From positions 35,786 to 99,785 of the forward strand of contig CAVUGY010000017.1 in NCBI GenBank assembly GCA_963741125.1: a DNA stretch of 64,000 nt. The letters run 5' to 3'. Shown in pieces: positions 2,374-60,031 of the stretch. Made by a program: the position numbers and the translations under genes. The notes below the pieces were generated by a model. That model saw only the letters and a list, made by a program, of their open reading frames with translations. It made no database searches and was not told the origin of the DNA. Numbering within the stretch: the stretch's first letter is position 1; each line of letters opens with the position of its first letter. This DNA comes from an uncultured beta proteobacterium (GTDB lineage: Bacteria > Pseudomonadota > Gammaproteobacteria > Burkholderiales > Burkholderiaceae_C).

Positions 2374-3362
2374 ATGCTCAACTACATCATTCGCCGCTGC
2401 CTGTACGGCGTGCTGGTCTTGCTCGGGCGTGAACCTGCTCACCTTCATGCTGTTCTTCACCGTCAACACGCCAGACGACATGGCGCGCCTGAACATCGGC
2501 GGCAAGCGCGTGACGCAGGAGCAGATTCTGAAGTGGAAGGTCGAGCGCGGCTACGACAAGCCGCTGTACTGGAACACGGCCGCGACAGGCGCGCACAGGC
2601 GACCGACACCATCTTCTGGGATCGCTCGGTCTCGCTGTTCGCGCTCGACTTCGGCCGCTCGGATTCGAAGAGCGCAACCGACATCGGCCACGAGATCCAG
2701 ACCCGCATGGTGGTGAGCCTGCAGCTGGCGGTGCCGCTTGTTCGTGCTTGCAGGTGATCGTGAGCGTCGGCATTCGCGCTGCTGCTCGTGTTCTTCAAGA
2801 ATTCGTCGATCGATTTCTGGGGCGTGGTGACCTGCGTGTTGATGCTGTCGATCAGCGCGCTGTTCTACATCATCGTCGGCCAGTTCATGTTTTCGCGCAT
2901 GTTCCACCTGGTGCCGATTTCGGGCTTCGAATCCGGGCTGGGACGCGGTGCGCTTCCTGGTGTTGCCGGTGCTGCTGTCGCTGCTGTCGAGATTGGGCAC
3001 CGAAGGGCGGCTGTACCGCGCGATGTTCCTCGAGGAGCTCGGCCGCGACTATGTGCGCACCGCACGCGCCAAGGGCCTCAGCGAGGCGCAAGGTGCTGTT
3101 CGATCATGTGCTGCGCAATGCGCTGATCCCGATCCTGACCAGCGCCGGCAGCTACTTGCCGTTCGTGTTTCTGGGCAGCCTGGTGTTCGAGAGCTTCTTC
3201 GGCATCCCGGGCCTGGGCGCGTACGTCATCGATGCGATCACGGGGCAGGACTTCGCGATCGTCCGCTCGATGGTCTTCGTCGGCTCGGTGATCTACGTCC
3301 TGAGCTACATCGTTATCGACGTGGCCTACACCTGGGTCGACCCGCGCGTGCGCCTCGCCTGA
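2374..3362 (+). CDS. ABC transporter permease (YejB/OppB-like), frameshifted
   Basis: N-term MLNYIIRRCLYGVLVLLG; internal LLTFMLFFTVNTPDDMARLNIGGKRVTQEQILKWKVERGYDKPLYW; C-term ..RTARAKGLSE..VLFDHVLRNALIPILTSAGSYLPFVFLGSLVFESFFGIPGLG..IVRSMVFVGSVIYVLSYIVIDVAYTWVDPRVRLA (typical ABC TM signature), spread over three frames. Confidence 0.6.
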
Positions 3363-6675: not shown

Positions 6676-6883
6676 CGGCGCACACCCCAGGTGTTGCATC
6701 AAGCCAACGGCTCCGTCACGGGCTGCTTGGGGCTATTCCCTAGTGAAGGGGCCTCGCCCGGCGTCGACCCGCGTCGCGCACTGTCGAGAACCTTGACGCG
6801 AATCTAATGAATACGCCGCGTTGCGAGTCGCGGCGCCTCGTTGCGCATCGTCCACGGTGGAACGCGCTCAAGCCCGTTCTGCT

Positions 6884-7037
6884 GCGGCCACTACGGAGTT
6901 TCCCGAGAGAGAGCCCGTCCATTGCACTGTGACAATTGGTTTACATGCTCCACAAACAAGCTCCGGCGCATCCACGAAATTCGCCCGGTGTTTGCTTTGG
7001 GGCAAGGGTCTAGCGATCAATCCTCTTAGGAGACTCC
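6884..7037 (+). promoter_or_regulatory. Conserved 5' leader (copy 1) upstream of the TonB-dependent receptor gene; candidate cis-regulatory RNA
   Basis: About 150 nt immediately 5' of the start codon is roughly 65% identical to the leader of the downstream paralog (10140..10289). It starts with GCCACTACGGAGTT, contains GTGACAATT, and ends GGCAAGGG.T.TAGCGATCAA.C.T..TCTT.GGAGA...CATG. Confidence 0.35.
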
Positions 7038-9951: not shown

Positions 9952-10002
9952 GATCAACAGCGCTGCGGGCAACGCCTGCAGCAGCAATTGATCAAAGTCA
10001 GC

Positions 10003-10035
10003 CCACCGGGGCACTCCCGGTGGGCTTTTCTTTTC
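10003..10035 (+). terminator. Rho-independent terminator after TBDR paralog 1
   Basis: CCCACCGGGGCACTCCCGGTGGG hairpin followed by CTTTTCTTTT. Confidence 0.5.
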
Positions 10036-10139
10036 CAGGAGTAGCGACACACGGCGATGGCGCACGCGCATGTCTGCGCCAGTGAACCGAACAGTCCGCA
10101 CACCGATTCGGCACGCTTGCACGTCAAGTCGAACCGTTG

Positions 10140-10289
10140 TACAGGAGCCACTACGGAGTTCCCCGGGGATATGGCGACTCCGCGCCAACGTGACAATTCG
10201 CTTACACGCCCCTCAGACGAGCGCCATCCCGTTCACAAGATCGGCTCGCGGATTTGCTCTGAGGCAAGGGGTTATCGATCAACCTTTTC
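10140..10289 (+). promoter_or_regulatory. Conserved 5' leader (copy 2) upstream of TBDR paralog 2; candidate cis-regulatory RNA
   Basis: Aligns with 6884..7037: GCCACTACGGAGTTCCCCGG...GTGACAATTCGCTTACACGCCCC...GGCAAGGGGTTATCGATCAACCTTTTCTTGGGAGAATTCATG. Confidence 0.35.
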
Positions 10290-42093: not shown

Positions 42094-44496
42094 CGCCGTT
42101 TCGCCAGGCCACTCTCAAGAGCGCCGACGCGCACGGCGCGGTTCTGGCCCTCGACGGCGGCTGGCAGATGCGCGTGGCGCTGGTGGCGCCGGGTGTGGGC
42201 CGGACGCTGTTGCTGCCGCCTTCGGGTCTGCGCGAGCCGCGCAGCTGGAGCGTGATCGATGGCCGAGCCCGCGACGCGTGGCAAGGCGCCGACCGGTCGG
42301 CCTTGTTCGCCGATGCCCCCGCGGCCACGCTGACCCAGGCCGGCAATGACCTCACCCTGGCCGACGACTTGCTGCGCGTGCACGTGAGCTTGAACCCCTT
42401 GGGCCTCACCTGGGAGCAATGGAACGGCAATGCCTGGCAAACCTGCTGCATCGACCGGCCGACCTTCGGTTACGGCAGCGCGAAGCGCAGCGGCCTCACT
42501 GGCCATTGGCAGCAGCGTGACGAGCACGACCAGTACTTCGGCCTGGGTGACAAGACCGGCCCGTCGAACAAGGCCGGCCGCCGCTTTCGCACGCGGGCGC
42601 TCGACGCGCTGGGCCACAACGGCGAAACCTCCGACCCGCTGTACAAGCACTGGCCCTTCTTCATCGGCCGTCGCGCCGACAGCGGTGCCTGCTACGGCAT
42701 GTTCTACGACACGCTGTCCGAATGCACGTTCGACTTCGGCCAGGAATTCGACAACTACCACGGCTTTTACCGGGCCACCGAAATCGCCGATGGTGATCTC
42801 GACTGCTACGTCCTGGCCGGCCCCGACGTGGCCGCTGCGCTGGCGCGCTTCGTGGCCCTCATCGGCGGCACGGCGATGCCACCGCGCTGGAGCCTGGGTT
42901 ACGCCAACACCGCGATGGCCCTGGCCGACGTGCCCGATGCACAGGCCTGCATCGGCGAGTTCCTGGCCACGCGCCAAGCGCCTGCAGTTTCCGCTGTCCA
43001 GCTTTCATTTCGGCTCGGGCTATACCAGCCGCGGCAAACGGCGCTACGTCTTCACCTGGAACCGCGACAAGTTTCCCGACCCCGCAGGCCTGCTGCAGGC
43101 CTTTCGCGATGCCGGCGTGCGCACGGTGGCCAACATCAAGCCCTGCCTGCTCGACGATCACCCGGCCTTTCCGGCCATCGCCGCGGCCGGCGGCTTCGAT
43201 CCGGGAGGAGGGCGGCGCGATCTGCCTGGACCCAGTTCTGGGATGGCTGGGGCGCGCACCTCGACTTCACCCGCGACGGCGATCGCCATTGGTGGCAGGA
43301 CAACCTGCAGCAGCAGGTGCTCGACGTCGGCTTCGACGCCGGCTGGAACGACAACAACGAGTACGCGATCTGGAACGAGGCCGGCGTGACGCATGCCAAC
43401 GGCCAGCCGCTGCCCATCCACCGCTCGCGACCCTTGCAGCCGCTGCTGATGACCGAGGCCACGGCCGAACGACAGCGCGCGCTCAAGCCTGGCGAGCGCA
43501 GCTACACGATCACGCGCGCCGGCCCGCCCGGCATCCAGCGCACGGCGCAGACCTGGTCGGGCGACAACACCACCAGCTGGCACACCCTGCGCTGGAACCA
43601 GCGCATGGCGCTGACCATGAGCCTGTCGGGCCTGTTCAACATCGGCCACGACATCGGCGGCTTCTTCGGCCCGGTGCCCGACGCCGAATTGCTGATCCGC
43701 TGGACACAGGCCTGCTGCCTCGTGCCGCGCATGATCATGAACTCGTGGAAGGCCGACGGCAGCGTCAACTCGCCCTGGCTGCACCCCGAGGCGACCGACA
43801 CCATACGCAGCGCGGTGCGGCTGCGGCTGCGCCTGATGCCCACGCTGTACACGCTGATGTGGCAGGCCGCCGCGAGCGCATCGCCCCGTGCTGCGCCCGA
43901 GCTTCTTCCACTTCGGCGACGACGCCACCTGCTGGCAGGACAACGACGAGATGATGGTCGGCCCCGATCTGCTGGTCGCGCCCGTATTCGCGCCCGGCCA
44001 GCGCGAACGCAGCCTGTACCTGCCCAAGGGCGCGCATGGCAGCGGCTGGTACGACTTCTGGAGCGAGCAGTACTGGCCCGGTGGGCAAACCATCACCGTG
44101 CCCGCCGAGCTGACACGCCTGCCGCTGTTCGTGCGCGCCGGCGCATTGCTGGCGACCACCGATACCTGGCAAGACCAGGCCCTGACCGAAGAGCCTTCGC
44201 GCGCGCTGCACTACTACCCGCCACCCGCCGATGCATCAGCGTCGACATCGACCGCAGAACTGTTCGAGGACGATGGCCTGCAGGCCGGCCACGCGGCCAC
44301 GCGGCATCGCCTGCACCGCTTCGAGGCCAGCGCGAGCCGCAGCGCGCTGCGCATAGCCGCCAGCGACACGGGCAGCTGGCCGCTGCCCTACACCCAGATC
44401 CGCGTCGTGCTGCCCAAGGGCGAGCAGCGCCCCTTGACGCTGGCCGCCGGCAGCGTTGCGCTGACGCCTGCGAGCGCTGCGGCCGGGCAGGGCTAA
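42090..44496 (+). CDS. Glycoside hydrolase family 31 (alpha-glucosidase/alpha-xylosidase YicI-like); frameshifted at about 42960, 43200, 43880
   Basis: ..MPPRWSLGY.., ..PLSSFHFGSGYTS..KRRYVFTWNRDKFPDP.. (frame 42430), ..FWDGWGAHLDFT..WNDNNEY..SGDNTTSWHTLR..GHDIGGF (catalytic region), C-term frame 43888..44496. Confidence 0.75.
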
Positions 44497-44517
44497 GCGC
44501 GGGTAGGGCCGCCCACG

Positions 44518-45469
44518 ATGCCCAGCCCGCCATGGCCCTGGCTGGGCGACGAGCGAGCCACTGCCGCGCGCCGTGCCGATCTGCGGCGCCTGCTCGGCCC
44601 GCTGCCGACGCTCGCTGCCGCCCCGAGCGGCGAACGCTTGTCGACCGAGCTCCAGCCCTTCGCCCGCATCGAGCGCTGGCGCCTCGCCCTCAACCGCGAA
44701 GAGCCGGTGCCGGCGCTGCTGCTGCTGCCGCCCGAGGGCCAAGCCGCGCGGCCTGGTGCTCTACAACCACGCGCACGGCAACAACTTCGCGGTCGGCAAG
44801 GACGAGCTGCTGCAAGGCCGGCCGGCATTGCAGCCGCCGCCATACGGCGAAGTACTGCCCGCGCTCGGCTTGGCGGTGCTGGCGATCGACCATTGGTGCT
44901 TCGGCGAACGTGCGTCGCGCAGCGAACGGGCATGGGTCAAACAACTGCTGTGGCAGGGCCACACGCCGTGGGGCTACCGCGTGCACGACACGCTGGCCGC
45001 GCTCGACTGGCTGCGCGCGCAACCGGGCCTGGCCGGCTTGCCGACGGCGACGCTCGGCCTGTCGATGGGCAGCACGATGGCCGTCTGGGCCGCGGCCTTG
45101 CGGCCCGACATCGATGCCTGCATCGAGATGTGCGGCCTGGCCGAGTTCGATGCGCTGCTGGCCAGCGGTGGCCACGACCTGCATGGCGAATACTTCTTCG
45201 TGCCGGGCTTGAAGCGCGATTTCAGCGCTGCGGAAATCGCCGCACTGATCGCGCCGCGCCTGCACCTGTCATTGATCGGGCGCGACGATCCGCTGACGCC
45301 GCCGGCCGGCGTCGAAAGCATCGACCGCGCGATGCGCGAGGCCTATTCGCTGCTGGGCCAGCCCAGCGCCTGGCAGCAGCGCGTGTCTGCGGTGGGGCAC
45401 CGCGAAACGGCGGAGATGCGCGGGCTGGTGCTGGCCGAGCTGTCGCGGCTCGGGTCAAGCACGCTCTGA
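44518..45469 (+). CDS. Alpha/beta-fold hydrolase (dienelactone-hydrolase/esterase-like); frameshift near 44745
   Basis: ..LVLYNHAHGNNF.., nucleophile elbow GLSMGS, ..DDPLTP..; N-term in frame 44518, remainder in frame 44573..45469. Confidence 0.6.
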
Positions 45470-45652
45470 GGCTCGGGGCTCGATCAGCGCCTGACGGCGG
45501 AATGATATTTCCGCGTGCCGGCTGGTTCGGCCACACGTCGGGCCAGCGAGCACATGAGCGGTGCCGCCATGCCCGGTTTCTGCCAAGATATACGACATGC
45601 AAACCGGACAAACCGTGTCGTCGATAGCACGTTGACCCCCCGAAGGCCCATC

Positions 45653-46345
45653 ATGAGCGTCGACGAATTCACAAGGATGCTTGAAGCTCTCACCAAGCTT
45701 CTTGGCGTTCTTGTTTGGCCCGCGTTGCTTGCGTTTGTGCTCATTCGGTTTGGGCCCGCGCTCAGAGACTTCTTCTCAAGTCTGGGCGAGTTCACCTTCA
45801 AAGGTGGTGGGTTTGAAGCAACCGCAAAGCGCAAGCAGGCCGAGGCTGCGGCGGCGCTGGTCGCGGCTTCCGTAGCCCGACCTGATGCCAATACGACACC
45901 GGAGTCGGCCGCCCGCGACGCGAAGGAAGCTGCTGCCGTTGTAGCGGAGTCGGTCAACGCTCGCGTCATCCGTCGCGCCAGCGAGGCGACAGCTCTGTGG
46001 GTTGACGATCGGCCGAGCAACAATATCTTCGAGCGGCAGTCGCTCGAGGCACTTGGTGTTTCATTCGTCCTTGCCACCTCGACCGAGGAGGCGCTTGACC
46101 GCCTCGCCAAGAGAAAGTTCGATGTCGTCATCTCTGATATGGGGCGCCCTCCCGACCCGCGCGCCGGGTACACGCTCTTGGAACAGCTTCGTGCTTCTGG
46201 AAATCAAACGCCGTTCGTCATCTACGCGGGCTCCAACGCCCCGGAGCACAAGGCGGAAGCCCGAAGTCGAGGCGCTCTTGGCTGTACCAATCGCGCTTCG
46301 GAATTGTTCGGGTATGTTCTCGCAGCGCTCAACCGCTTGGGCTAG
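45653..46345 (+). CDS. Membrane-anchored protein with a C-terminal response-regulator receiver-like (CheY-fold) domain; no output domain
   Basis: N-term TM LLGVLVWPALLAFVLIRFG; Ala/Glu-rich linker; C-term ALWVDDRPSNN..VSFVLATSTEEALDRL..KFDVVISDMGRP..GYTLLEQLR..PFVIYAGS...HK matches REC beta1 DD, beta3 phospho-acceptor Asp, beta4 Ser/Thr and beta5 Lys positions. Confidence 0.45.
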   Translation: MSVDEFTRMLEALTKLLGVLVWPALLAFVLIRFGPALRDFFSSLGEFTFKGGGFEATAKRKQAEAAAALVAASVARPDANTTPESAARDAKEAAAVVAESVNARVIRRASEATALWVDDRPSNNIFERQSLEALGVSFVLATSTEEALDRLAKRKFDVVISDMGRPPDPRAGYTLLEQLRASGNQTPFVIYAGSNAPEHKAEARSRGALGCTNRASELFGYVLAALNRLG

Positions 46346-46421
46346 GCCTTCGCACAAGCAGTTCGCCATCGGCTTGGCCCGCTCAGCTCAGACACCCCCG
46401 ACGGGCGGCAGAATCGCGGCC

Positions 46422-47121
46422 ATGTGCAGCAACTACAAAGCCGTCACGCGCCAAGACCGGCTGCTGCAATTCTTCGGTGCGCACCACCCGGACGGCACGG
46501 GCTCGGGCGAGACCTTTCCGCTTGGGCTGGCTCCATTCATCCGCCTGGCCGAGGACGGTTCGGGCCACCGAATCTGCGATGACGGGTTCTTCGGGCTGTT
46601 GCCGCACTTCGCAGCCGAGTTGGCCTACGGCCGGCGCACCTACAACGCGCGCAGCGAAACCGTGGCCAAGCTGCCGAGTTTCCGCGACTCGTGGCGCAAG
46701 GGCCAGCGCTGCATCGTGCCCGCCGAGATCAGTCTATGAGCCCTGTTGGGAGACCGGCAAGGCCGTGCGCTGGGCGATCTACCAGCCGGGTGCCGCGCCG
46801 ATGGGCATCGCCGGCATCTGGTCGTCATGGAAAGATGCTCACGACAAGTGGCACTACTCGTTTGCCATGCTCACGATCAACGCCGACGGGCACCCAGTGT
46901 TCCAGCGCATGCATCGGCCCGGCGAAGAAAAGCGCATGGTCGTGATCCTGCATCCCGACGACTACGGGCGCTGGTTATCGTGCCCGGTGGAAGAGGCCGC
47001 AAGGTTCTTCAAGCGATGGCCCGGCCCGCTCGAGGCAGAGCCAGCGCCGTTGTCGCCGAGAGGCCGCGCGGCGAAGGCGCAGCAAGAGGGTCCGGGCGAC
47101 GAGCCAAACCTGTTCGGCTAG
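46422..47121 (+). CDS. SOS-response-associated peptidase (SRAP/YedK, abasic-site processing); frameshift near 46738
   Basis: N-term MCSNYKAVTRQDRLLQFFGA (catalytic Cys2), ..RTYNARSETVAKLPSFRDSWRKGQRCIVPA..; C-term half in frame 46477: ..WAIYQPGAAPMGIAGIWSSWKD..YSFAMLTINADGHPVFQRMH..RMVVILHPDDYGRWL. Confidence 0.7.
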
Positions 47122-47893
47122 GGGCTCCGGTGGCGACTGCATGTCCGATGCCGTATCGGACTAGCAGTCGCATCAGATCACTGGCGGAGGGAGCGGCGAG
47201 TGCGTCGAATCTGCCAGCGTGGGCAATGCCGATATCAGGGACTACCGTGCCACCGCGCTTTCCGAATGGAGCGTGAACGACTGGCGACGAATCGCTGGCG
47301 TGTCGAGAATTGCCGCAACGTCGCTTCAGCGGTGCAGGAACTCTTCCAGCTGACTCCAACTCAGCGGAGGTCCGCTGAAGCTGGGTTCGTTCGTCAGCGC
47401 TGATAACGATGCCAGATTTCAATCGAGCGACTCGTCCAGCTGGAAGCGCACGGCGTCATGCACCCTGCCAAGCTGACGACGAGTGATACATGATCGTCGA
47501 CCACGTTGTCAGTGCGAATCGAGTAGCCATAACGCCGACAGGTTCGTGAGACTTCGAATCGTCGTTCAGACAGTCTTCGCGCCGCGTCGCCGTCCAGCGT
47601 ACGCACGGCGCCGAGCAGTGCTCGCCTCAAGCCAGCGCAGTGGCACGCTGTTATCGACCCTGGCGCGAGCCATGAAGTTGCTAGGTGCGGCAACGGCGTA
47701 AATCCGCAGATCGGCACGGTGTAGCAAGTCGGTCTGCAGCCTGCCGAGTGCCGTCGTGCAAGACGTCCACGTAACCGACCCGCATCAACGTGCGAATAAG
47801 TGCATGAGCGGTCGAATTGCCGAAAGCAGTTAGACGGTGTCCTTCAAGCAGTTCGCCTAAGTCCCACTACCACAGCGCGCCAAGAACACGTGC

Positions 47894-47981
47894 TGGCGTC
47901 CGGCGGAGGGAGCGGGATTCGAACCCGCGGGGGGCTATTAACCCCCACACGCTTTCCAGGCGTGCGACTTAAACCGCTCAT
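47894..47981 (-). tRNA. tRNA-Ser (anticodon GGA), long variable arm
   Basis: Reverse complement: GGAGGGA-TG-GAT-GAGCGGTTTAA-GTC-G-CACGC-CTGGAAA-GCGTG-TGGGGGTTAATAGCCCCCC (variable stem-loop)-GCGGG-TTCGAAT-CCCGC-TCCCTCC-G. CCA is not encoded. Confidence 0.85.
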
Positions 47982-48041
47982 CCATCCCTCCGCAGGGACT
48001 GCGTGCTCGTCGATCCCTAGTGGGACCTGCACGCGCGAATC

Positions 48042-48421
48042 TTAGCTGACGGTGCTCAGCGAATGCGCCTTCAACACCTCGAGCGCGACGAAGGCCAGCG
48101 CGCGTTCGTGCGTGCATTCCAGCACCACCGGCGGGGCATGGCCTTCGGCCAGGGCTTCGCGCCAGCGCAGCGCGCACACGCACCAGCGGTCGCCGGGTTG
48201 CAGGCCACGAAAGCGCAGCTCGGGCCGCGGCGTGATCAGGTCGTTGCCGCGTTCCATCTGCTGGTTCAGGAAACCCACGGTCATCTTGGCGCAGATCAGG
48301 TGGCTGCCGGCGTCGTGTTCGTCGCTGCGGCAGCAGCCGTCGCGATGGAAGCCGGTCAACGGGTCGAAGGAGCAGGGCACCAGCGCGCCGCCCAGCACGT
48401 TGCGCGCGGGCGGGTTCATTT
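48042..48421 (-). CDS. DUF2237-family protein
   Basis: MNPPARNVLGGALVPCSFDPLTGFHRDGCCRSDEHDAGSHLICAKMTVGFLNQQMERGNDLITP; ~125 aa. Confidence 0.55.
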
Positions 48422-49345
48422 GGCGGCGGTCGGCTGGCCCTTGTTGATGATCGCCATCGCGGTGGCGATCAGCCCCGACACCTCGGTCATGTTGCCGGGC
48501 ACGATCATCGTGTTGTTCTTCTGCGCCAGCTGGGCGTAGGCGTCGACGGCCTTCTCGGCCACCTTCAGCTGCACCGCCTGTTCGCCGCCCGGCTCGCGGA
48601 TGGCCTGCGGCGACCTTGCGGATCGCATCGGCCGTGGCCTCGGCCACCGCGACGATGGCCGCGGCCTCGCCCTGGGCCTTGTTGATCTCGGCCTGCTTCT
48701 CGCCTTCGGAGCGGGCGATGAAGGCCTCGCGCTCGCCGGTGGCGATGTTGATCTGCTCCTGGCGCCGGCCTTCCGAGGCCGCGATCAGCGCGCGCTTTTC
48801 GCGCTCGGCGGTGATCTGCGCCTGCATCGAGTGCAGGATCGCGGCCGGCGGCGTCAGGTCCTTGATCTCGTAGCGCAGCACCTTCACGCCCCAGTTCAGC
48901 GCCGCTTCGTCGAGCGCCTGGACCACCGCGGCGTTGATGAGGTCGCGCTCCTCGAAGGTCTTGTCGAGTTCCATCTTGCCGATCACGCTGCGCAGCGAGG
49001 TCTGCGCCAGCTGGGTGATGGCCACGATGTAGTTGCGACGAGCCGTAGCTGGCGCGCATCGGGTCGGTGACCTGGAAGTACAGGATGCCGTCGACCTGCA
49101 GCTGGGTGTTGTCCTGCGTGATGCAGACCTGGCTCGGCACGTCGAGCGGGATTTCCTTCAGCGAATGCTTGTAGGCCACGCGGTCGATGAAGGGCACCAG
49201 CGAAGTTCAGGCCCGGCGTCAGCGTGCGGTCGTACTTGCCGAGGCGCTCGACCACCCAGGCGTGCTGCTGCGGCACGATCTTGAACGAGCGGGCAGATGA
49301 AGATCGCGGCGATGACCAGCGATGACGATGTAGACGACTTCCATT
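48416..49345 (-). CDS. SPFH/band-7 (stomatin/prohibitin-like, QmcA/YbbK-type) protein; multiply frameshifted
   Basis: N-term MEVVYIVIA..; core pieces MPFIDRVAYKHSLKEIPLDVPSQVCITQDNTQLQVDGILYFQVTDPMRASYG, ..AQTSLRSVIGKMELDKTFEERDLINAAVVQALDEAALNWGVKVLRYEIKDLTPP..ILHSMQAQITAEREKRA..; C-term KAVDAYAQLAQKNNTMIVPGNMTEVSGLIATAMAII in four frames. Confidence 0.6.
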
Positions 49346-49788
49346 GAGGACTCCTTGGCGAATCGGTACGAATCAGTGCTGGCAGGGCGCCGGGCTCGAC
49401 CAGCAGCCAGCTGCCTCGACGGCGCGGATGACATGGCTGCCCGGCTGCGGCGTGCCGCTGCCGGCATGAACGCGCCGCCCAGCTCGCGCCGCGGTAGCTG
49501 CACCCGGGCGTTGCCCTCGGCGCCCCAGGCGGTCACATGCACGCGTCTCGCCGATGTCGAGGTTGACGTCGCGGTTGGCTCGGCCGGCAGGGCCGCGGGC
49601 TGGCGGCTGCGCTTGCAGTGCCAGGCCGCCACCGCGCCGCCGCCCACGACCGCTGCGGCCAGCAACTGGCCGCCGAAGGCCAGGCCCAGATGGGCGGCGA
49701 GCGCGGCCGCCGCCGCGCCGAGCGCCAGCATCAGCAGGTAGAACGTGCCGGTCGCCAGCTCGGCGGCGACCAGCACGCCGGCCGCCAT
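49343..49788 (-). CDS. NfeD-family membrane protein (short YbbJ-type), probably frameshifted
   Basis: MAAGVLVAAELATGTFYLLMLALGAAAAALAAHLGLAFGGQLLAAAVVGGGAVAAW; upstream of and overlapping the SPFH gene as in nfeD-spfh operons. The C-terminal beta-barrel region is not in frame. Confidence 0.45.
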
Positions 49789-49939
49789 CCACCAGAGTGG
49801 TCGACGTCGGCCAATCCATGGCCGTCCTCCGTGGCATGCTCGCTTTGCGCGCAGTGTAGCCAGCGCATGTCGGCGTGCGAATCAGCCCTACACTTCGCGC
49901 TGCTTTCGCATTTCGCCACGCCGGCCGGAGGCTCGCACG

Positions 49940-52245
49940 ATGCAGCGCTTCCACTTCCCGATCGTCATCATCGACGAGGACTTCCGCTCCGAGAACACCT
50001 CGGGCCTGGGCATCCGCGCGCTGGCCGCAGGCGATCGAGAAGGAGGGCTTCGAGGTGCTGGGCGCCACCAGCTACGGCGACCTGATCGCAGTTCGCGCAG
50101 CAGCAAAGCCGCGCCAGCGCCTTCATCCTGTCGATCGACGACGAGGAGTTCACCCCCGGCCCCGAGCTCGACCCGGCGGTGCTGAACCTGCGCAAGTTCA
50201 TCGAGGAGATCCGCTTCAAGAACGCCGACATCCCGATCTACCTGTACGGCGAGACGCGCACCTCGCAGCACCTGCCGAACGACATCCTGCGCGAGCTGCA
50301 CGGCTTCATCCACATGTTCGAGGACACGCCGGAGTTCGTGGCCCGCCACATCATCCGCGAGGCCAAGAGCTACCTCGACGGCGTGGCGCCGCCGTTCTTC
50401 AAGGCGCTGATCGACTACGCGCAGGACGGCTCGTACTCCTGGCACTGCCCGGGCCACTCGCGGCGGCGTGGCCTTCCTGAAGAGCCCGGTCGGGCCAGAT
50501 GTTCCACCAGTTCTTCGGCGAGAACATGCTGCGCGCCGACGTCTGCAACTCGGTCGACGAGCTCGGCCAGCTGCTCGACCACACCGGCCCGGTGGCGGCG
50601 AGCGAGCGCAACGCGGCGCGCATCTTCAACGCCGACCACTGCTTCTTCGTCACCAACGGCACCAGCACCAGCAACAAGATGGTCTGGCACCACACGGTGG
50701 CGCCGGGCGACGTGGTGGTGGTCGACCGCAACTGCCACAAGTCGATCCTGCACGCGATCATCATGACCGGCGCGATGCCGGTGTTCCTGACGCCGACGCG
50801 CAACCACTTCGGCATCATCGGCCCGATCCCGCAGAGCGAGTTCGCGCCCGAGGCGATCCGGCCGAAGATCGCCGCCAACCCGCTGCTGGCCGGCGTCGAC
50901 GCGAGCAAGGTCAAGCCGCGCATCCTGACGCTGACGCAGAGCACCTACGACGGCGTGCTCTACAACACCGAGACCATCAAGGCACATGCTCGACGGCTAC
51001 ATCGACACGCTGCACTTCGACGAAGCCTGGCTGCCGCACGCCGCCTTCCACACGTTCTACGGCAGCTACCACGCGATGGGCAAGAACCGCGCGCGGCCCA
51101 AGGACGCCGCTGGTCTTCGCCACGCAGTCGCACGCACAAGCTGCTGGCCGGCTATCAGCCAGGCCTCGCAGGTGCTGGTGCAGGACTCGCAGAACGCGCA
51201 AGCTCGACCGCCACCTGTTCAACGAGGCCTACCTGATGCACACCTCGACCAGCCCGCAGTACGCGATCATCGCCAGCTGCGACGTGGCCGCGGCGATGAT
51301 GGAGGCGCCCGGCGGCACGGCGCTGGTCGAGGAGAGCATTCGCGAGGCGCTCGACTTCCGCCGCGCGATGCGCAAGGTCGACAAGGAGTACGGCAAGGAC
51401 TGGTGGTTCAAGGTCTGGGGCCCGGACAAGCTGGCCGACGAGGGCATCGGCAAGCGCCGACGACTGGATGCTCGAAGGCCAACGAGAAGTGGCACGGCTT
51501 CGGCGACCTGGCCGACGGCTTCAACATGCTCGACCCGATCAAGAGCACGATCATCACGCCGGGGCTGGACGTGACGCGGCAAGTTCGCCAAGACCGGCAT
51601 CCCGGCAGCCATCGTCACCAAGTTCCTGGCCGAGCACGGCGTGGTGGTCGAGAAGACCGGCCTGTACTCGTTCTTCATCATGTTCACGATCGGCATCACC
51701 AAGGGCCGCTGGAACACGCTGCTGACCGCGCTGCAGCAGTTCAAGGACGACTACGACAAGAACGAGCCGATGTGGCGCATCCTGCCCGAGTTCTGCGCCG
51801 CGCACCCGCAAGCTACGAGCGCATCGGCCTGCGCGACCTGTGCCAGAGCATCCACGAGATGTACGCCAAGGGCGACATCGCGCGGCTGACGACCGAGATG
51901 TACCTGTCGGACCTGCACCCGGCGATGAAGCCGAGCGACGCCTTCGCCCACATCGCGCACCGCAAGACCGAGCGGGTGGACGATCGACGAGCTCGAAGGC
52001 CGCATCACCACCTCGCTGCTGACGCCGTATCCGCCGGGCATTCCGCTGCTGATTCCGGGCGAGCGCTTCAACAAGAAGATCGTCGACTACCTGCGCTTCA
52101 CGCGCGAGTTCAACGCAGCGCTTTCCGGGCTTCGACACCGACGTGCACGGCCTGGTCGAAGACGAGGTGGTAGGCCCCGACGGCAGCCGGCGCTATTACG
52201 TCGATTGCGTTCGCGCCGAGGCCGGCGCCAAGCTTGTGGCCTAAT
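49940..52245 (+). CDS. Large PLP-dependent Orn/Lys/Arg decarboxylase (wing + PLP + C-terminal domains); about 10 frameshifts
   Basis: Wing domain MQRFHFPIVIIDEDFRSENTSGLGIRALA..IEKEGFEVLGATSYGDL; ..IPIYLYGETRTSQHLPNDILRELHGFIHMFEDTPEF..; PLP core ..NADHCFFVTNGTSTSNKMV..VVDRNCHKSILHAIIM.., ..TQSTHKLLAGY.. (PLP Lys context), ..YLMHTSTSPQYAIIAS..; C-term ..LTPYPPGIPLLIPGERFNKKIVDYLRF..YYVDCV. Confidence 0.7.
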
Positions 52246-52283
52246 TCGTGCCTCGATAACTGTTCAAAGCGACCGGAGTTCCC

Positions 52284-52451
52284 ATGGGCAACAAGATCAA
52301 GACCGAAGCCGACCGCAAGGCCACTCCGCGCCCGCCGGCGCCCGTCGGCGTGGTGTTCACCGCCGGCCGCGGGCAAAAGGTCAGCCTGGAGCGCGGCTCG
52401 CACACGCGCAGCAAGAAGAACCCGGGCAAGCGGCCCAAGCGCGGCGGCTGA
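52284..52451 (+). CDS. Small basic hypothetical protein (55 aa, Lys/Arg-rich)
   Basis: MGNKIKTEADRKATPRPPAPVGVVFTAGRGQKVSLERGSHTRSKKNPGKRPKRGG; GGAG RBS 7 nt upstream; missed by the >=60 aa ORF track. Confidence 0.3.
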   Translation: MGNKIKTEADRKATPRPPAPVGVVFTAGRGQKVSLERGSHTRSKKNPGKRPKRGG

Positions 52452-52473
52452 GGCCTCACGTCCCGCGCAGCGC

Positions 52474-54150
52474 ATGCTGCGTATGACCGAGCTGCGCCTG
52501 CCGCTCGGCCATGCCGAGGGCGCGCTGCGGGCGGCCATCGTGGCGCGTCTCGGCATCTCGGGCAGCGAGCTCGCGAAGTTCACCGTCTTCCGGCGCGCCT
52601 ACGACGCGCGCAAGAAAACGGCGATCCAGCTGATCTACACCGTCGACTGCGAACTGGCGGGCGAAGCGGCGCTGCTGGCGCGTCTGGCCGGCGATGCGCA
52701 TGTGCGGCCGGCGCCCGATACGAGCTACCGCTTCATCGGCCATGCGCCGGCCGACTTCTATGCTGGCGAGCGCCTGCGACCCGTTGGTCGTCGGCTTCGG
52801 CCCCTGCGGCCTGTTCGCGGCGCTGATCCTGGCGCAGATGGGCCTGGCGCCCATCGTGCTGGAGCGCGGCAAGGCGGTGCGCGAGCGCACCAACGACACC
52901 TGGGGCCTGTGGCGCCGCGGCGTGCTCGAGCCGGAGTCCAACGTGCAGTTCGGCGAGGGCGGCGCCGGCACGTTCTCGGACGGCAAGCTGTGGAGCCAGA
53001 TCAACGACCCGCGACACCTGACGCGCAAGGTGCTGGCCGAGTTCGTCAAGGCCGGTGCGCCCGAAGAGATTCTGTTCGTCAGCAAGCCGCACATCGGCAC
53101 CTTCCGCCTGGTCGGCATGGTCGAGAAGATGCGCGCCGAGATCGAAACGCTGGGCGGCGAGATCCGCTTCCAGCAACGCGTGGCCGACGTGTTGATCGCG
53201 GCCGGGCACATTCGCGGCGTGCGGCTGGCCTCGGGCGAAGAGTTGCGTGCCGATCATGTCGTGCTGGCGCTGGGCCACAGCGCGCGCGACACCTTCGAGA
53301 TGCTGCATCGCCGCGGTGTGTTCATGCAAGCCAAGCCGTTCTCGATCGGCTTCCGCATCGAGCATCCGCAGGGCCTGATCGACCGTGCGCGCTTCGGCGC
53401 CAGCGCGGGCCATCCGCATGCTCGGCGCGGCCGACTACAAGCTGGTGCACCACGCCGGCAACGGCCGCTCGGTGTACAGCTTTTGCATGTGCCCCGGCGG
53501 CACGGTGGTGGCGGCCACATCGGAAGCCGGCCGCGTGGTGACCAACGGCATGAGCCAGTATTCGCGCAACGAGCGCAACGCCAACGCCGGCATCGTCGTC
53601 GGCATCACGCCGCAGGACTATCGGCAGGACGGCCTGGCCGAGGGCACGGTCAGTCCGCTCGACGGCATCGCCTTCCAGCGCCACTGGGAGTCGCGCGCCT
53701 TCGAGCTCGGCGGCGGCGGCTATCGTGGCGCCCGGGCCAGCTGCTCGGCGACTTCGTCAAGGGCCAGCGCCAGCACAGCGCCTCGGCAACGTGCTGCCCT
53801 CGTACCAGCCGGGTGTGCGGCTGACCGACCTGGCCGAGCCCGGCCATGCCAGCCTGCCCGACTACGCCATCGCCGCGATCCGCGAGGCCCTGCCGGCGTT
53901 CGAGCGCCAGATCAAGGGCTTCGCGATGGCCGATGCGGTGCTGACCGGCGTCGAAACGCGCACCTCGTCGCCGCTGCGCATCACGCGCGGCAAGGATTTC
54001 CAGAGCCTGAACGTCAAGGGCCTGTACCCGGCCGGCGAAGGCGCGGGTTATGCCGGCGGCATCATGTCGGCCGGCGTCGACGGCATCGAGGTCGCCGAGG
54101 CCCTGGCCGCCGAGTTGCTCAGCCCGGTGCGGCCATCATCACCTGGCTGA
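52474..54150 (+). CDS. FAD-dependent oxidoreductase, COG2509 family (uncharacterised NAD(FAD)-utilising dehydrogenase); frameshifted at about 52780, 53420, 53740
   Basis: N-term ..[38 protein letters not shown]; FAD site ..[31 protein letters not shown]..; ..[11 protein letters not shown].., ..[38 protein letters not shown]..; C-term ..[26 protein letters not shown].. Confidence 0.6.
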
Positions 54151-54905
54151 AGCCGCCGTCGACGTAGGTGATCTCGGCGCTGATGCCGGCCGCCAGGTCG
54201 GACAGCAGGAAGGCGGCGACGTTGCCGACGTCGTCGATGGTCACGTTGCGGCGGATCGGCGCGTTGGCCGCGAACTCGGCCTGCATCTTGCCGAAGTCCT
54301 TGATGCCTGAGGCCGCCAGCGTCTTGATCGGCCCGGCCGAGATGCCGTTGACGCGCACGCCCTGCGCGCCCAGGCTCTGCGGCCAGGAAGCGCACGCTGG
54401 CCTCCAGCGAGGCCTTGGCCAGGCCCATGGTGTTGTAGTTGGGCACGCAGCGCACGGCGCCCAGGTAGGTCAGCGTCAGCAGCGCCGCGCCGGGGCGCAG
54501 CCGCGGCAGCGGCGGCCTTGGCCATGGCCGGGAAGCTGTAGGCCGAGATGTCGTGGGCGATGCGGAAGTTCTCGCGCGACAGGCCGTCGAGAAAGTCGCC
54601 GGCGATCGCCTCGCGCGGCGCAAAGCCGATCGCGTGCACGAAGCCGTCGAACTGCGTCCCAGGCCTCGCCGAGGCCGGCGAACAGGCGCTCGATCTGGGC
54701 GTCGTCGGCCACGTCGCAGTCGAACACCAGCTTGGAGCCGAATTCGGCGGCGAACTCGGTGATGCGCTCCTTGAAGCGCTCGCCCTGGTAGCTGAAGGCC
54801 AGTTCCGCGCCCTCGCGGTGGCAGGCGCGGGCGATGCCGTAGGCGATCGAGCGGTTGTACAGCACGCCGGTGATGAGCAGGCGCTTGCCGGTCAGGAATC
54901 CCATG
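54119..54905 (-). CDS. fabI: Enoyl-[acyl-carrier-protein] reductase (NADH), frameshifted at about 54360, 54480, 54640
   Basis: [57 protein letters not shown]..; ..[42 protein letters not shown]..; ..[60 protein letters not shown]. Confidence 0.7.
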
Positions 54906-54969
54906 AGATCGCTCCGAGCTGAGGACAAAACCAGGCGCCGATTCTGGCACGCCCAGACGCGCGCGACTG

Positions 54970-55055
54970 TTGCCGGTACGCCTCTTGCAGAGTACAATCC
55001 ACGTTTCGCTGAAAACCGCCTATGGGCGGATTCTTCCAGCCCATTTTTTTTGCTT
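54970..55055 (+). promoter_or_regulatory. Sigma70-type promoter and attenuator-like leader of the rimP-nusA-infB operon
   Basis: TTGCCG (54970) - 17 nt - TACAAT (54993); leader with overlapping hairpins CCGCCTATGGGCGG and GGGCGGATTCTTCCAGCCC followed by ATTTTTTTT. Confidence 0.4.
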
Positions 55056-55085
55056 GATCGCTTTCGTACCGCTCGATTACCGCGC

Positions 55086-55588
55086 ATGAATTGGCAGGAC
55101 GCCGCCCAACGCACCGTCGCCGGGCTCGGCTACGAGCTCGTGGACGTCGAACGCACGGCGGGCGGCCTGCTGCGCGTCTTCATCGACCGCGTGCCGGGCG
55201 CCTCGTATCCGACCGGCGAGGCCGAGTTCGTCACCGTCGACGACTGCGAAGCCGTGACCCGCCAGCTGCAGTATGTGCTCGAGGTCGAGCAATGCGATTA
55301 CGCGCGGCTCGAGGTCTCGTCGCCCGGCCTGGACCGGCCGCTGCAAGCACGAGGCCGACTACGCGCGCTTTGCCGGGCCACGTGGACCTGACGCTCAAGC
55401 TGCCGCTCCAGGGCCGCAAGAAGTTCGACGGCCTGCTGGCCGCGCGCGAGGGCGGCTGGCGCCTGCAGATGGCGGCCAAGGCCAAGGGCGAGCCAGCCCA
55501 GGCGCTGGACTTTGCTTTCGACGAGGTGCGCGAGGCGCGCCTCGTGCCGGTGGTGGATTTCAAGGGCAGCCAAGTCTGGCAAGGCTGA
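55086..55588 (+). CDS. rimP: Ribosome maturation factor RimP; compensating frameshift pair around 55335-55385
   Basis: [75 protein letters not shown] then out of frame for ~45 nt, resuming ..[33 protein letters not shown]...[12 protein letters not shown]. Confidence 0.75.
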
Positions 55589-55642
55589 CGCAGGCGCGCC
55601 GACGCAGGCGGTCGCTGCGCACGACGGAGAGTGAGAGAAGCA

Positions 55643-57130
55643 ATGAACCGCGAAATGTTGATGCTGGTGGACGCGATCTCGCGCGAGAAGAGCGTCGAGC
55701 GCGAAGTCGTGTTCGGCGCCGTCGAGGCGGCGCTGGCCTCGGCCACCAAGAAGCTGCACGGCGGCGAGGTCGACATCCGCGTCGCGGTCGACCGCGACAC
55801 CGGCGACTACGAGACCTTCCGCCGCTGGCATGTGGTGCCCAACGAGGCCGGCCTGCAGATGCCCGACGCCGAGATCCTGCTGTTCGAGGCCCAGGAGCAG
55901 ATCGCCGACATCGAGGTCGACGACTACATCGAAGAAGCCGGTCGAGTCGGTGTCGATCGGCCGCATCGGCGCGCAGGCGGCCAAGCAGGTGATCCTGCAG
56001 AAGATCCGCGACGCCGAGCGCGAGCAGCTGCTCAACGACTTCATGTCGCGCGGCGAGAAGATCTTCGTCGGCACCGTCAAGCGCCTGGACAAGGGCGACA
56101 TCATCGTCGAGATCGGGCCGCGTCGAAGGGCGCCTGAAGCGCAGCGAGATGATCCCGAAGGAAAACCTGCGCATCGGGCGACCGCGTGCGCGCCTTCATC
56201 ATCGGCAGTCGACCCGACCCTGCGCGGCGCCGCAGATCATGCTGTCGCGCTCGGCGCCGGGCTTCATGATCGAGCTGTTCGCGCCAGGAAGTGCCCGAGA
56301 TCGAGCAGGGCCTGCTCGAGATCAAGAGCTGCGCCCGCGACCCCGGTTCGCGCGCCAAGATCGCGGTGCGTCTCGCACGACAAGCGGGTCGACCCGATCG
56401 GCACCTGCGTCGGCGTGCGCGGCTCGCGCGTCAACGCGGTCACCAACGAGCTCGCCGGCGAGCGCGTCGACATCGTGCTGTGGTCGGAAGACCCGGCGCA
56501 GTTCGTGATCGGCGCGCTGGCGCCGGCCAACGTGCAGTCGATCGTCGTCGACGAGGAGACGCCACGCGATGGACGTGGTGGTCGACGAGGAAAACCTCGC
56601 CATCGCGATCGGCCGCGGCGGCCAGAACGTGCGCCTGGCCTCCGAGCTGACCGGCTGGCGCATCAACATCATGACCGCCGAGGAGTCCAGCGCCAAGCAG
56701 GCGCAGGAGTCCGACTCGGTGCGCAAGCTGTTCGTCGACAAGCTCGACGTCGACGCCGAGGTCGCCGACATCCTGATCGCCGAGGGCTTCACCAGCCTCG
56801 AAGAAGTGGCCTACGTGCCGATGCAGGAGATGCTCGAGATCGAGAGCTTCGACGAAGACACCGTCAACGAGCTGCGCACCCGTGCCAAGGATGCGCTGCT
56901 GACGATGGAGATCGCCACGCGAAGAAAGCGTCGAAGACGTGTCGCAGGATCTGCGCGACCTCGAAGGCCTGACGCCCGAGCTGATCGCCAAGCTCGCCGA
57001 GGGCGGCGTCCACACCCGCGACGACCTGGCCGACCTGGCCGTCGACGAACTGACCGAGATGACCGGCATCGACGACGAGCAGGCCAAGACGTTGATCATG
57101 AAGGCGCGCGAACACTGGTTCACCGCTTGA
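55643..57130 (+). CDS. nusA: Transcription termination/antitermination factor NusA; multiply frameshifted
   Basis: [37 protein letters not shown]..; S1 region ..[22 protein letters not shown]..; KH region ..[17 protein letters not shown].., ..[93 protein letters not shown]; C-term AR repeats ..[33 protein letters not shown]. Confidence 0.85.
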
Positions 57131-57179
57131 CCACTCTGAACATCACCAGCACGCCGCACGCCCACCGAGGACTCGCACA

Positions 57180-60031
57180 ATGGCTGTGACCACCGTCGCC
57201 CAGTTCGCCGCCGAGCTGAACCGCCCGGCCGCGACGCTGCTCGAGCAGCTGCAGTCGGCCGGCGTCGCCAAGAAGTCGACCGACGACGCGCTGACCGAGG
57301 CCGACAAGGAGCGCCTGCTCGACTTCCTGCGCAGCCAGCCACGGCACCGGCCAGCGGCGAGCGCAAGAAGATCACGCTGACGCGCAAGTCGCACCAGCGA
57401 GATCAAGCAGGCCGATGCCTCGCGGCAAGGCGCGCACGATCCAGGTCGAGGTGCGCAAGAAGCGCACCTTCGTCAAGCGCGACGAGGCGCCGGCGGCCGA
57501 CGAGCCGAGTCGACGCCGGCCGCGCCGGTGGTCGACGAAGCCGAACTCGCGCGCCGCGAGGAAGAGGCCCGCCGCAGGCCGAGCTGCTGCGCCGCCAGGA
57601 AGAAGAGCTGGCCGAGAAGCGCCGCCAGCGCGAAGAACAGGAGCAGCGCGACCGCGAGGCCGCCGAGGCGCGCGGGCGCCGAGGCCGCAGCGGCCAAGGC
57701 CGCCAGCGCGACGGCGGCCGCGGCACGCCCGTCGGCACAAGGCCGAAGGCCGCCGCCGCGCGGCTGCCAGCGCCGTCGCCGCACCGGCCGAGCCCGCCAA
57801 GCCCGCGCTGCGCGTGGTCAAGGCCGCCGACGTCGAGGCCGCCGAGAAGCAGCGCGCCGACCGATCTGGAACGCGCCGCAAGGCGGCCGAGACCGAAGCC
57901 GCCGCGATCCGCGCGATGATGACCGCGCCGAAGAAGGTGCTGCTCGCCAAGAAGCCCGAAGAGGCCGCAGCCGGCGGCCGATCCAAGGCCGGCATCAAGG
58001 GCACGATCCACAAGCCGGCCAGGCGCGCCGGGCGCGCCCGCGGCGCCGGGCGCCGCCAAGCCGGGCGACAAGAAGTCGGTCAAGTCCGAGAAGCTGTCGT
58101 CGAGCTGGGCCGACGACGCGGCCAAGAAGCGCGCGCTGAAGACCCGCGGCGACACCGGCGGCGGTCTCGCCCGGGCTGGCGCGCGCCCGCGCGGCCGCGG
58201 CCGCGGCGACCGCAGCGACGACCAATGGCTCGACCTTCGTCGCCGCCGGCCGAGGCGGTGAGCCAGGAAGTGCACGTGCCCGAGACCATCACGCGTGGCC
58301 GATCTGGCGCACAAGATGTCGGTCAAGGCCTCCGAGGTCATCAAGCAGCTGATGAAGCTCGGCCAGATGGTCACCATCAACCAGCAGCTCGACCAGGAGA
58401 CGGCGATGATCGTGGTCGAGGAGATGGGCCACAAGGCGCTGTCGCGGCCAAGCTCGACGATCCGGAGGCCTTCCCCGAGGAAGAAGAGGCCGCACCAGGA
58501 CGGCCGAGCAGCTGCCGCGCGCGCCGGTCGTCACCGTGATGGGCCACGTCGACCACGGCAAGACCTCGCTGCTCGACTACATCCGCAGCGCGCCGCGTGG
58601 CGGCGGGCGAGGCCGGCGGCATCACGCAGCACATCGGCGCCTACCACGTGCGAGACGCCGCGCGGCATGATCACCTTCCTCGACACCCCGGGCCACGCCG
58701 CGTTCACCGCGATGCGCGCGCGCGGCGCCAAGGCCACCGACATCGTGATCCTGGTGGTGGCCGCCGACGACGGCGTGATGCCGCAGACCAAGGAAGCCAT
58801 CCACCACGCCAAGGCGGCCGGCGTGCCGATCGTCGTGGCGATGAACAAGATCGACAAGCCCGAGGCCAACCTCGAGCGCGTGAAGAGCGAGCTGGTCGCC
58901 GAGCAGGTCGTGCCCGAAGACTTCGGCGGCGATTCGCCGTTCGTGCCGGTGTCGGCCAAGACCGGCCAGGGCATCGACACGCTGCTCGAGCAGGTGCTGC
59001 TGCAGGCCGAGGTGCTGGAGCTGAAGGCGCCGCGCGATGCCATGGCCAAGGGCCTGGTGATCGAAGCCCAGCTCGACAAGGGCCGCGGCCCGGTGGCGAC
59101 GGTGCTGGTGCAGTCGCGGCACGCTCGAAGCGCGGCGACGTCGTGCTGGCCGGCTCGAGCTACGGCCGCGTGCGCGCCATGCTCGACGAAGACGGCAAGC
59201 CGATCAACGAAGCCGGGCCCGTCGATCCCGGTCGAGATCCAGGGCCTGACCGAAGTGCCGCAGGCCGGCGACGAGTTCATGGTGCTTGGCCGACGAGCGC
59301 CGGGCGCGCGAGATCGCCACCTTCCGCCAGGGCAAGTACCGCGACGTCAAGCTGGCCAAGCGCCAGGCCGCCAAGCTCGAGAACATGTTCGACAACATGG
59401 GCGCAGGGCGCCGCGCAGACGCTGTCGCTGATCATCAAGGCCGACGTGCAGGGTTCGCAGGAAGCGCTGGCGCAGTCGCTGCTCAAGCTGTCGACCGACG
59501 AGGTCAAGGTGCAGATCGTGCACGCCGCGGTCGGCGGCATCAGCGAGAGCGACATCAACCTGGCGATCGCGTCCAAGGCGGTGATCATCGGCTTCAACGT
59601 GCGCGCCGATGCCGGCGCGCGCAAGCTGGCCGAGAACAACGGCGTCGACATCCGCTACTACAACATCATCTACGACGCGGTCGACGAGGTGAAGGCGGCG
59701 ATGACCGGCATGCTGGCGCCCGAGCAGCGCGAAGAAGTCATCGGCACGGCCGAGATCCGCACCGGTGTTCGTGGCCTCGCAAGATCGGCACGGTCGCCGG
59801 CTGCATGGTCACGGCCGGGCATGGTGCGCCGCAGCGCGCGCTTCCGCCTGCTGCGCGACAACGTGGTGGTCTACACCGGCGAGCTCGAGTCGCTGCAAGC
59901 GCCTGAAGGACGACGTGCGCGAGGTCAAGGAAGGCTTCGAGTGCGGCATCAAGCTCAAGAACTACAACGACATCAAGGAAGGCGACCAGCTCGAGTTCTT
60001 CGAGGTCAAGGAAGTCGCCCGAACGCTGTAG
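57180..60031 (+). CDS. infB: Translation initiation factor IF-2; multiply frameshifted (e.g. around 58590-58660)
   Basis: [29 protein letters not shown]..; G domain ..[22 protein letters not shown][out-of-frame ~70 nt][72 protein letters not shown]..; C-term ..[31 protein letters not shown]. Confidence 0.85.

Follow-up and report, generated by a model that had tools for sequence, protein, structure and literature searches.

A variable insertion slot at the 3' end of tRNA-Ser(GGA) in an uncultured Burkholderiales bacterium, probably filled by pieces of separate origin

Genomic islands and prophage remnants linked to tRNA genes arise when a tyrosine recombinase integrates DNA at the 3' end of the tRNA gene; the locus described below is like them in its position, its absence from relatives, its partly atypical composition and a direct repeat of the tRNA 3' terminus that bounds part of its DNA, and integrase-bearing phages use the same tRNA end. 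Decayed elements that keep their flanking attachment (att) sites have been defined as cis-mobilisable elements (CIMEs), together with the process of accretion; the definition was made in Firmicutes, where CIMEs are derivatives of known integrative and conjugative or integrative and mobilisable elements (ICEs and IMEs) and where mobilisation was shown by experiment (PMC5704250). Isolated gene cassettes outside integrons have been described as SALINs and as attG insertions (bioRxiv 10.1101/2022.09.11.507474). Here we describe a locus with features of all three, found in a stretch of 64,000 nucleotides (the window) of contig CAVUGY010000017.1, assembly GCA_963741125.1, from an uncultured Burkholderiales bacterium. 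The locus is a slot of 2,432 bp, defined as the DNA between the stop codon of an alpha/beta-hydrolase gene (45469) and the 3' end of a tRNA-Ser(GGA) gene (47902). With a probability of about 0.6, we read the slot as a strain-variable mosaic hot spot that contains a CIME-like, att-flanked remnant, a stranded integron cassette and an SRAP gene acquired earlier.

At the 3' end of tRNA-Ser there is a true insertion site of variable content, because the slot is empty in some relatives and filled with unrelated DNA in others. The hydrolase protein as query gave 80 loci (related loci are given L numbers below), the nearest of them from uncultured Burkholderiales and Casimicrobium-like metagenome-assembled genomes. 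In four of the 80 (L001, L003, L004 and L005) the identical tRNA-Ser(GGA) is found downstream of the hydrolase; these four and the sister strain contig L093 have the same tRNA save for single-base differences in L001 and L004 and for the terminal base. The slot is empty in L004, where 36 nt separate the hydrolase stop from the tRNA end, and in L005, where the distance is 11 nt and the far side of the tRNA is also syntenic. In L001 and L003 it holds 4,697 and 4,833 nt of other genes, a five-gene block coding for a LEA_2-like lipoprotein, a small conserved protein, a Na+/H+ antiporter and two GNAT/CelD-like proteins. This block is absent from the window, and the slot DNA of the window is absent from all 80 loci. 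Similarity between genomes ends exactly at the terminal CCA of the tRNA in every genome compared, and the synteny of the window on both sides of the tRNA agrees with the relatives. An earlier reading of the window (the original prediction) had placed a remnant genomic island here and proposed to look at this tRNA-Ser locus in related genomes. The comparison bears out the position: as in tRNA-targeted islands, there is DNA directly 3' of the tRNA which is absent at the same site in relatives, with two empty sites and other contents in L001, L003 and L093.

The block of L001 (9568-14264) and L003 (10893-15725), which are the two nearest species, has 64% GC as compared to 66-68% in its flanks, and no repeat of the tRNA end longer than 11 nt was found in it. 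We considered whether 45470-45530 of the window could be a leftover of the LEA_2-like 3' end of this block, but the local alignment was no better than shuffles, whereas the same alignment test was clearly significant for the sequences after the hydrolase in L001 and L003.

According to the original prediction, no attL/attR repeat of the tRNA 3' segment was seen. A repeat search did reveal one, an exact direct repeat of 14 nt, GGCGGAGGGAGCGG, at 47183-47196 and 47902-47915. The copy at 47902-47915 makes up the terminal 14 nt of the tRNA gene, and the distal copy lies 719 bp away. When the preceding T is included, the distal copy reads TGGCGGAGGGAGCGG (47182-47196, + strand) and matches the CCA-encoding tRNA end of the relatives at 15 of 15 positions. 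It contains the acceptor 3' strand, the discriminator and CCA, and would represent a displaced tRNA-Ser 3' terminus and the tRNA-distal att scar. The tRNA of the window reads CCG at 47901-47903, and not CCA as in all five relatives; most likely this is a consensus error, but it may also be a recombination junction. The expected count of the anchored 14-mer in the slot is 8e-5, or 0.006 when any tRNA offset is allowed, and a match of 14 nt was reached in 0 of 1,500 first-order Markov simulations. At eight other tRNA loci (2-20 kb) the tRNA 3' part recurred over at most 11 nt. A further tRNA-Ser remnant was not found in 45400-47181, the hydrolase end included, and the att-type repeat bounds 47183-47901 alone, not the whole 2.4 kb. 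Such a geometry is what site-specific recombination inside the tRNA 3' end leaves behind.

The same tRNA end is found in phages. We scanned IMG/VR with the 28-nt tRNA end and obtained nine loci, among them three (L110, L111 and L115) that have a partial tRNA copy of 44 nt, covering tRNA positions 48-91 with 95-98% identity, and that lack the tRNA gene. The copies lie at 430-473 in L110, 3227-3270 in L111 and 6055-6098 in L115. L111 and L115 are phage contigs with lysozyme-, tail-fibre- and helicase-like open reading frames (ORFs), and here the copy is situated 60-530 nt from an integrase-like ORF of 407-416 aa, while in L110 it is near a truncated ORF at the contig edge. A prophage end, L109 (8386-10255), has the same integrase-like ORF 529 nt from a complete tRNA-Ser(GGA). 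The ORFs of 407-416 aa were called tyrosine integrases from reading their sequences, not from a profile search. We conclude that phage integrases target this tRNA-Ser(GGA) end. The arms of the IMG/VR phage loci are unrelated to the 705 bp in the window. As a separate observation, L109, L110, L111 and L115 look like a phage group that targets tRNA-Ser(GGA) in GC-rich hosts.

The two copies of the repeat enclose 705 bp of orphan non-coding DNA (47197-47901), with a GC content of 60.0% and no codon periodicity. The original prediction had reported that the slot has no integrase and that 47122-47893 is without recognisable domains, and on both points we agree. In 47122-47901, six-frame searches gave no Pfam match and no homologue among 5.8 billion proteins, and the ORFs gave no match in PHROGs or PADLOC. 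The integrase was likewise missing when tRNA-Ser-specific phage integrases were compared to the window by tblastn, and the integrase or recombinase remnant which was to be looked for in all frames of the last ~770 bp is not there. The 705 bp belong to no Rfam family, and blastn against plasmids and phages gave nothing. A degraded PIN-toxin/antitoxin pair or a frameshifted integrase in 47122-47901 was also considered, and rejected on the empty six-frame searches and the absent codon periodicity. The 705 bp are probably the remnant of an integrated element that has lost its integrase and cargo. With copies at 47183-47196 and 47902-47915 and no integration or transfer genes between them, the 719-bp piece is like a CIME, and the slot is, as in accretion, open to further DNA. 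It differs from the CIMEs of Firmicutes in its very small size and its lack of coding sequence, and a search for its parent element was negative. The slot also differs from tRNA-linked islands, in that it lacks an integrase or any other mobility gene, the repeat encloses 719 non-coding bp and not the cargo genes, and the origins of the cargo are separate.

The receiver-gene module (45630-46353, + strand) is a second foreign piece. The cargo had been described as a TM+receiver-like protein and an SRAP gene, and the Pfam searches agree (PF00072, E 7e-11, and PF02586). The receiver ORF (45653-46345, + strand) codes for 230 aa, with a long N-terminal (membrane) helix, three helices and a canonical receiver (REC) domain. 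The domain keeps the acidic pocket and the phospho-acceptor Asp, and its VDD and SDM motifs align to CheY, with T87 replaced by A and K109 by R. An AlphaFold2 model has a predicted local distance difference test score (pLDDT) of 85, and Foldseek returned receiver matches with a target TM-score of 0.83-0.87 and a root-mean-square deviation of about 2 Å. The predicted fold is that of a receiver with an acidic pocket. There are 2,383 homologues, all of about 230 aa and many of them 70-98% identical, in Variovorax, Ideonella and Ramlibacter and also on short contigs binned to Chlorobiales and Desulfobulbaceae. In Variovorax sp. YR216 (FNRO01000002.1; L084, 8001-8693) the gene sits in the accessory slot of a P2-like prophage, between the baseplate and tail-completion genes, where it adjoins a cyclase-hydrolase and a histidine kinase. 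Elsewhere a homologue adjoins SduA_C (Shedu-type nuclease) genes (L089, 183-875, among the listed loci of the family).

In L086 (7515-8207) and L090 (136-828) the receiver gene is part of long one-directional arrays of small ORFs, and each array has four strong attC sites, which have RYYYAAC...GTTRRRY boxes, are 60-90 nt long and fold with -30 to -50 kcal/mol; in L090, R''...R' follows the receiver stop. The DNA homology of the window to L085, L086 and L090 is limited to 45630-46353. In the window and in these three loci it starts exactly at GTT(A/G)(G/A)CC, which is GTTGACC (45631-45637) in the window, and it ends in the R'' box overlapping the receiver stop codon, of which the window keeps ~8 nt past the stop. 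The boundary of the unit is consequently at the G↓TTRRRY crossover core, as in integron cassettes, and like these the unit is a single ORF that looks promoterless. The receiver gene is clearly foreign, as its GC content at third codon positions (GC3) is 0.67 compared to 0.87-0.94 in native genes, it has a cassette boundary, and copies with 70-98% identity occur in integron arrays, a prophage and contigs binned to distant taxa. It appears to be a stranded integron-type cassette. It departs from the definitions of cassette and SALIN in that the copy in the window is without attC and an integron integrase is absent from the 64 kb. That the slot as a whole is an integron array was rejected, since searches of 45300-48000, of the window as a whole and of L093 gave no attC. 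By analogy the attG route is a candidate for the insertion of the receiver cassette, though the retained attC was not found here.

Proteins of the SRAP/YedK/HMCES family use the N-terminal Cys2 to attach covalently to abasic sites in single-stranded DNA. The SRAP module of the slot (46398-47130, + strand) contains an ORF at 46422-47121, in which PF02586 is split over two frames, with profile positions 1-104 in 46422-46736 and 109-191 in 46732-47118. One extra G at 46732 breaks the frame, a break that the original prediction did not note; the G is not in a homopolymer and adjoins GATC. Without it the protein has 232 aa, as in homologues, starts with MCSNY, so that Cys2 is present, and matches the profile over its full length. 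It differs from its homologues in the interruption of the frame by this one G in the assembly, and the similarity is seen at the level of sequence. An intact homologue of 232 aa (P0121), on the ENA contig L093, is 96% identical to the reconstructed protein. The frameshift is most likely an error of the assembly consensus, because the contig is rich in indels. We do not call it a true pseudogene, since neighbouring genes have 1-3 frame changes each and the gene of the sister strain is intact. To judge from its sequence, the SRAP gene is probably functional.

The SRAP gene was not present in this slot in L001, L003, L004 or L005, which implies that it was gained in the present species group. Whether it is island cargo is doubtful, because its codon usage is near-native and its homologues are found among chromosomal genes, often beside tRNAs. 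In 13 metagenome loci, homologues at 58-73% identity have native-like GC3 and ordinary chromosomal neighbours. It was also possible to observe three SRAP homologues 36-110 nt downstream of tRNA genes and in the same orientation, one after tRNA-Ser(CGA) (L097, 246-1058), one after tRNA-Thr(CGT) (L099, 1601-2397) and one after tRNA-Val(CAC) (L100, 9817-10684).

The quality of the assembly has to be considered here. Compared to short-read relatives there are three frame changes in the alpha-glucosidase gene, one in the hydrolase gene (at about 44703-44744, with two frames by tblastn) and three in the SPFH gene, and downstream of the SPFH gene there are 1-3 per gene to about 57.5 kb. The sugar-transporter genes upstream, at 36.4-42.1 kb, have zero. 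This suggests that 42,980-57,500 is an indel-rich long-read consensus of uneven quality. Pseudogene calls in the window are unsafe, because the frame changes are spread over conserved genes.

The composition of the slot had been predicted to change abruptly in GC content and codon usage. The dip is real, with 62.7% GC in 45470-47901 as compared to a window mean of 66.9%, but it is modest and uneven and not uniform. It amounts to 1.55 SD below windows of the same size, 10% of which are equally low. The receiver module (61.3% GC) and the 705-bp segment deviate, while the SRAP module (66.7% GC, GC3 0.82-0.85) shows no clear deviation from the 0.87-0.94 of neighbouring or clean native genes. Rather than one abrupt and uniform shift, there is a near-native piece with a foreign-looking one on either side. 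A block at 6-13 kb has a lower GC content than the slot (59-62%), and in 6,000-13,000 there are large ORFs with signal-peptide-like starts, at 7038-9719 and 10290-11435.

The contig L093 comes from a sister strain, 96-98% identical, and shares only 46398-47130 (SRAP, 96%) and about 47880-48067 (98%) with this part of the window. The similarity over SRAP reaches 24 nt beyond the start codon on the upstream side and 9 nt beyond the stop codon. Between SRAP and the tRNA, L093 has a filling of ~800 bp (2461-3262) which is unrelated to that in the window, and upstream of SRAP (1-1728) it has a DinB-family gene in DNA of 59% GC in place of the receiver gene. With SRAP and the tRNA retained in L093 and unrelated DNA on either side of SRAP, the turnover around SRAP is recent and piecemeal. 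The filling of L093 also includes a tRNA-like T-arm/acceptor fragment (3008-3055), for which the weak tRNA-like match in Rfam (22 bits, E 0.29) is the sole sign. Two independent assemblies, L091 and L092, reproduce the junctions between hydrolase, receiver gene and SRAP at 98.4-98.7%, and the break of both at 46436-46461 is what strain differences would lead one to expect.

A possible order of events is as follows. Before the 719-bp insertion, SRAP and tRNA-Ser would have been convergent neighbours about 60 nt apart, sharing as terminator the hairpin which is now found at 47133-47171 (17-nt arms and a 5-nt loop, -28.6 kcal/mol for 47127-47181); a T-run is absent from the hairpin. The SRAP module would have been acquired earlier, or from a donor of similar composition, and its acquisition is suggested by relatives outside the species group, which lack SRAP at the locus. 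An element with a tyrosine integrase would then have recombined at the terminal 14-15 nt of the tRNA gene, so that element DNA came to form the tRNA end and the original one (...CCA) was displaced by 719 bp. Later deletion of the integrase and cargo would have left the 705 bp of non-coding DNA between two att copies, as in a CIME. The receiver gene would have landed between the hydrolase and SRAP as a gene-sized cassette of integron type and, with no usable attC, would have become stuck.

Several observations weigh against such a mosaic. The core of 14-15 nt is short next to the 44 nt in the phages found, and a search of IMG/VR for the 22-mer of the attR junction was negative. Blastn and tblastx against the 116 fetched loci, plasmids and phages brought up no intact parent element for the 705 bp, and the integrase step is for this reason inferred from the scar alone. 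The 705 bp and the repeat are seen in one indel-rich assembly, and 47131-47886 is without an independent contig. The filling in L093 has no tRNA-Ser repeat, and the ~20 nt nearest the tRNA (about 47880-47901), which are common to the window and L093, fit allelic replacement as well as independent integrations. For the receiver gene, there is no attC candidate in 45300-48000 or the whole 64 kb and no integron integrase in the 64 kb, and its neighbours are the hydrolase and SRAP. Finally, the mosaic does not account for a 13-nt direct repeat, CAAGCAGTTCGCC, with both copies on the + strand. Copy 1 (46355-46367) is just past the receiver stop, in the position where the cassette attC is expected, and copy 2 (47845-47857) is 45 nt from the tRNA; the pair extends to CCTTC after a 4-nt gap. 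A related sequence, AAGCAGTTAGAC, is found near copy 2, at 47824-47835. The sequence AAGCAGTT has three + strand copies in the slot and five in the window, as compared to 0.81 expected. These CAAGCAGTTCGCC and AAGCAGTT sites may be degenerate attC core-like boxes (GTTCGCC, GTTAGAC).

The main rival, which we find improbable but which has to be taken seriously, is that the repeat is fortuitous or a local duplication, and that homologous recombination in the conserved flanks exchanges fast-evolving intergenic alleles between strains. It agrees well with the comparison to L093, as the two strains share SRAP and the tRNA with its ~20 nt but not the 750-800 bp between, L093 lacks the repeat, and both fillings are non-coding and of similar length. 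A fortuitous repeat would, however, not be expected to be anchored at the tRNA terminus, to match the ancestral CCA end at 15 of 15 positions, or to occur in a sequence where its expected count is as low as 8e-5 (0.006 at any offset), and the tRNA end is a demonstrated att site of phages. Unrelated intergenic alleles of 700-800 bp would, moreover, still require a foreign source.

To two bolder readings we attach little weight. In the first, the membrane-anchored, stand-alone receiver would be a single-gene accessory function, for instance a phage-defence or signal-interference module, which may travel with integron cassettes and prophages and settle in hot spots linked to tRNA genes. In the other, a secondary one, the 719-bp att-flanked piece would be a miniature mobile element that depends on an integrase, and not a deletion remnant.

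The original prediction took the region for a single, old and eroded island at tRNA-Ser, with the receiver gene, SRAP and an eroded integrase region, whose integrase and att repeats had decayed. The position at the tRNA 3' end, the absence from L004 and L005, the lower GC content and the missing integrase are all as such an island would have them. A common origin is nevertheless rather doubtful, considering that GC3 is 0.67 in the receiver gene and 0.82-0.85 in SRAP, that the modules have separate, gene-sized boundaries of homology, and that SRAP is present in the sister strain while the receiver gene and the 705 bp are missing there. The sole att repeat is internal, with no tRNA remnant at the hydrolase end, and the search in six frames against 5.8 billion proteins found no trace of the integrase. 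The modules have separate histories and the turnover seen in L093 is recent, and a single old island does not describe them.

It is very unlikely that the region is native and that L004 and L005, with their short spacing, and L001 and L003, with their different block, have undergone deletions and rearrangements. The near-native codon usage of SRAP, and its chromosomal homologues that are often beside tRNA genes, would suit this, but the codon usage of the receiver gene is foreign, and its copies at 70-98% identity are in integron arrays, a prophage and contigs of distant taxa. Furthermore, the sister strain differs on both sides of SRAP, the duplication of the tRNA end indicates an insertion, and the empty sites belong to two different lineages, with no deletion scars in L004 or L005. 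An assembly artefact, in the form of a chimeric join or a collapsed strain mixture in an error-rich metagenome assembly, can hardly explain the slot either, for although frameshifts recur at intervals of a few hundred bp between about 42,980 and a point beyond 57,500 and the breaks of L091 and L092 indicate strain heterogeneity, two independent assemblies have the same hydrolase-receiver-SRAP junctions, L093 reproduces the proximity of SRAP to the tRNA, the synteny on both sides of the tRNA matches the relatives, and indel errors do not produce an exact 14-nt repeat.

The remaining features of the locus are its two anchors and a spacer. The left anchor, the alpha/beta-hydrolase gene (44518-45469, + strand), is conserved, with homologues in the 80 loci and weak Pfam hydrolase matches, and its stop at 45469 is where the original prediction had put it. 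It is followed by a spacer of 160 bp (45470-45629, 62.5% GC) to which we assign no origin; the same spacer precedes the receiver gene in the sister assembly L091 (98% identical). The tRNA-Ser(GGA) gene (47902-47991, - strand; ARAGORN, and Rfam tRNA with 53 bits) has its 3' end facing the slot. That it abuts the slot on the opposite strand was correctly predicted, but its end had been placed at 47894, which is 8 nt off from the 47902 given by ARAGORN. On the right the slot is anchored by a DUF2237 gene (48042-48416, - strand; PF09996, E 1.6e-49), which is syntenic in L001, L003 and L005. We also observed an exact 16-nt inverted match, CCGTGCCGATCTGCGG, between 44571-44586 in the 5' region of the hydrolase ORF and 47704-47719 in the 705-bp segment. 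The match has no extension, and its score was reached by no shuffle.

The slot is an ordinary and well-known kind of bacterial genome hot spot, and not a new type of element. What changes is the annotation, from one decayed island to a small hot spot that is actively turning over. One tRNA 3' end gathers mixed traffic here, of tyrosine-integrase elements, integron cassettes and allelic exchange at the level of strains, and the setting of such traffic is uncultured Burkholderiales of soil and water. The lead of wider interest is the receiver cassette, a conserved membrane-tethered receiver without a partner kinase that recurs in mobile contexts.

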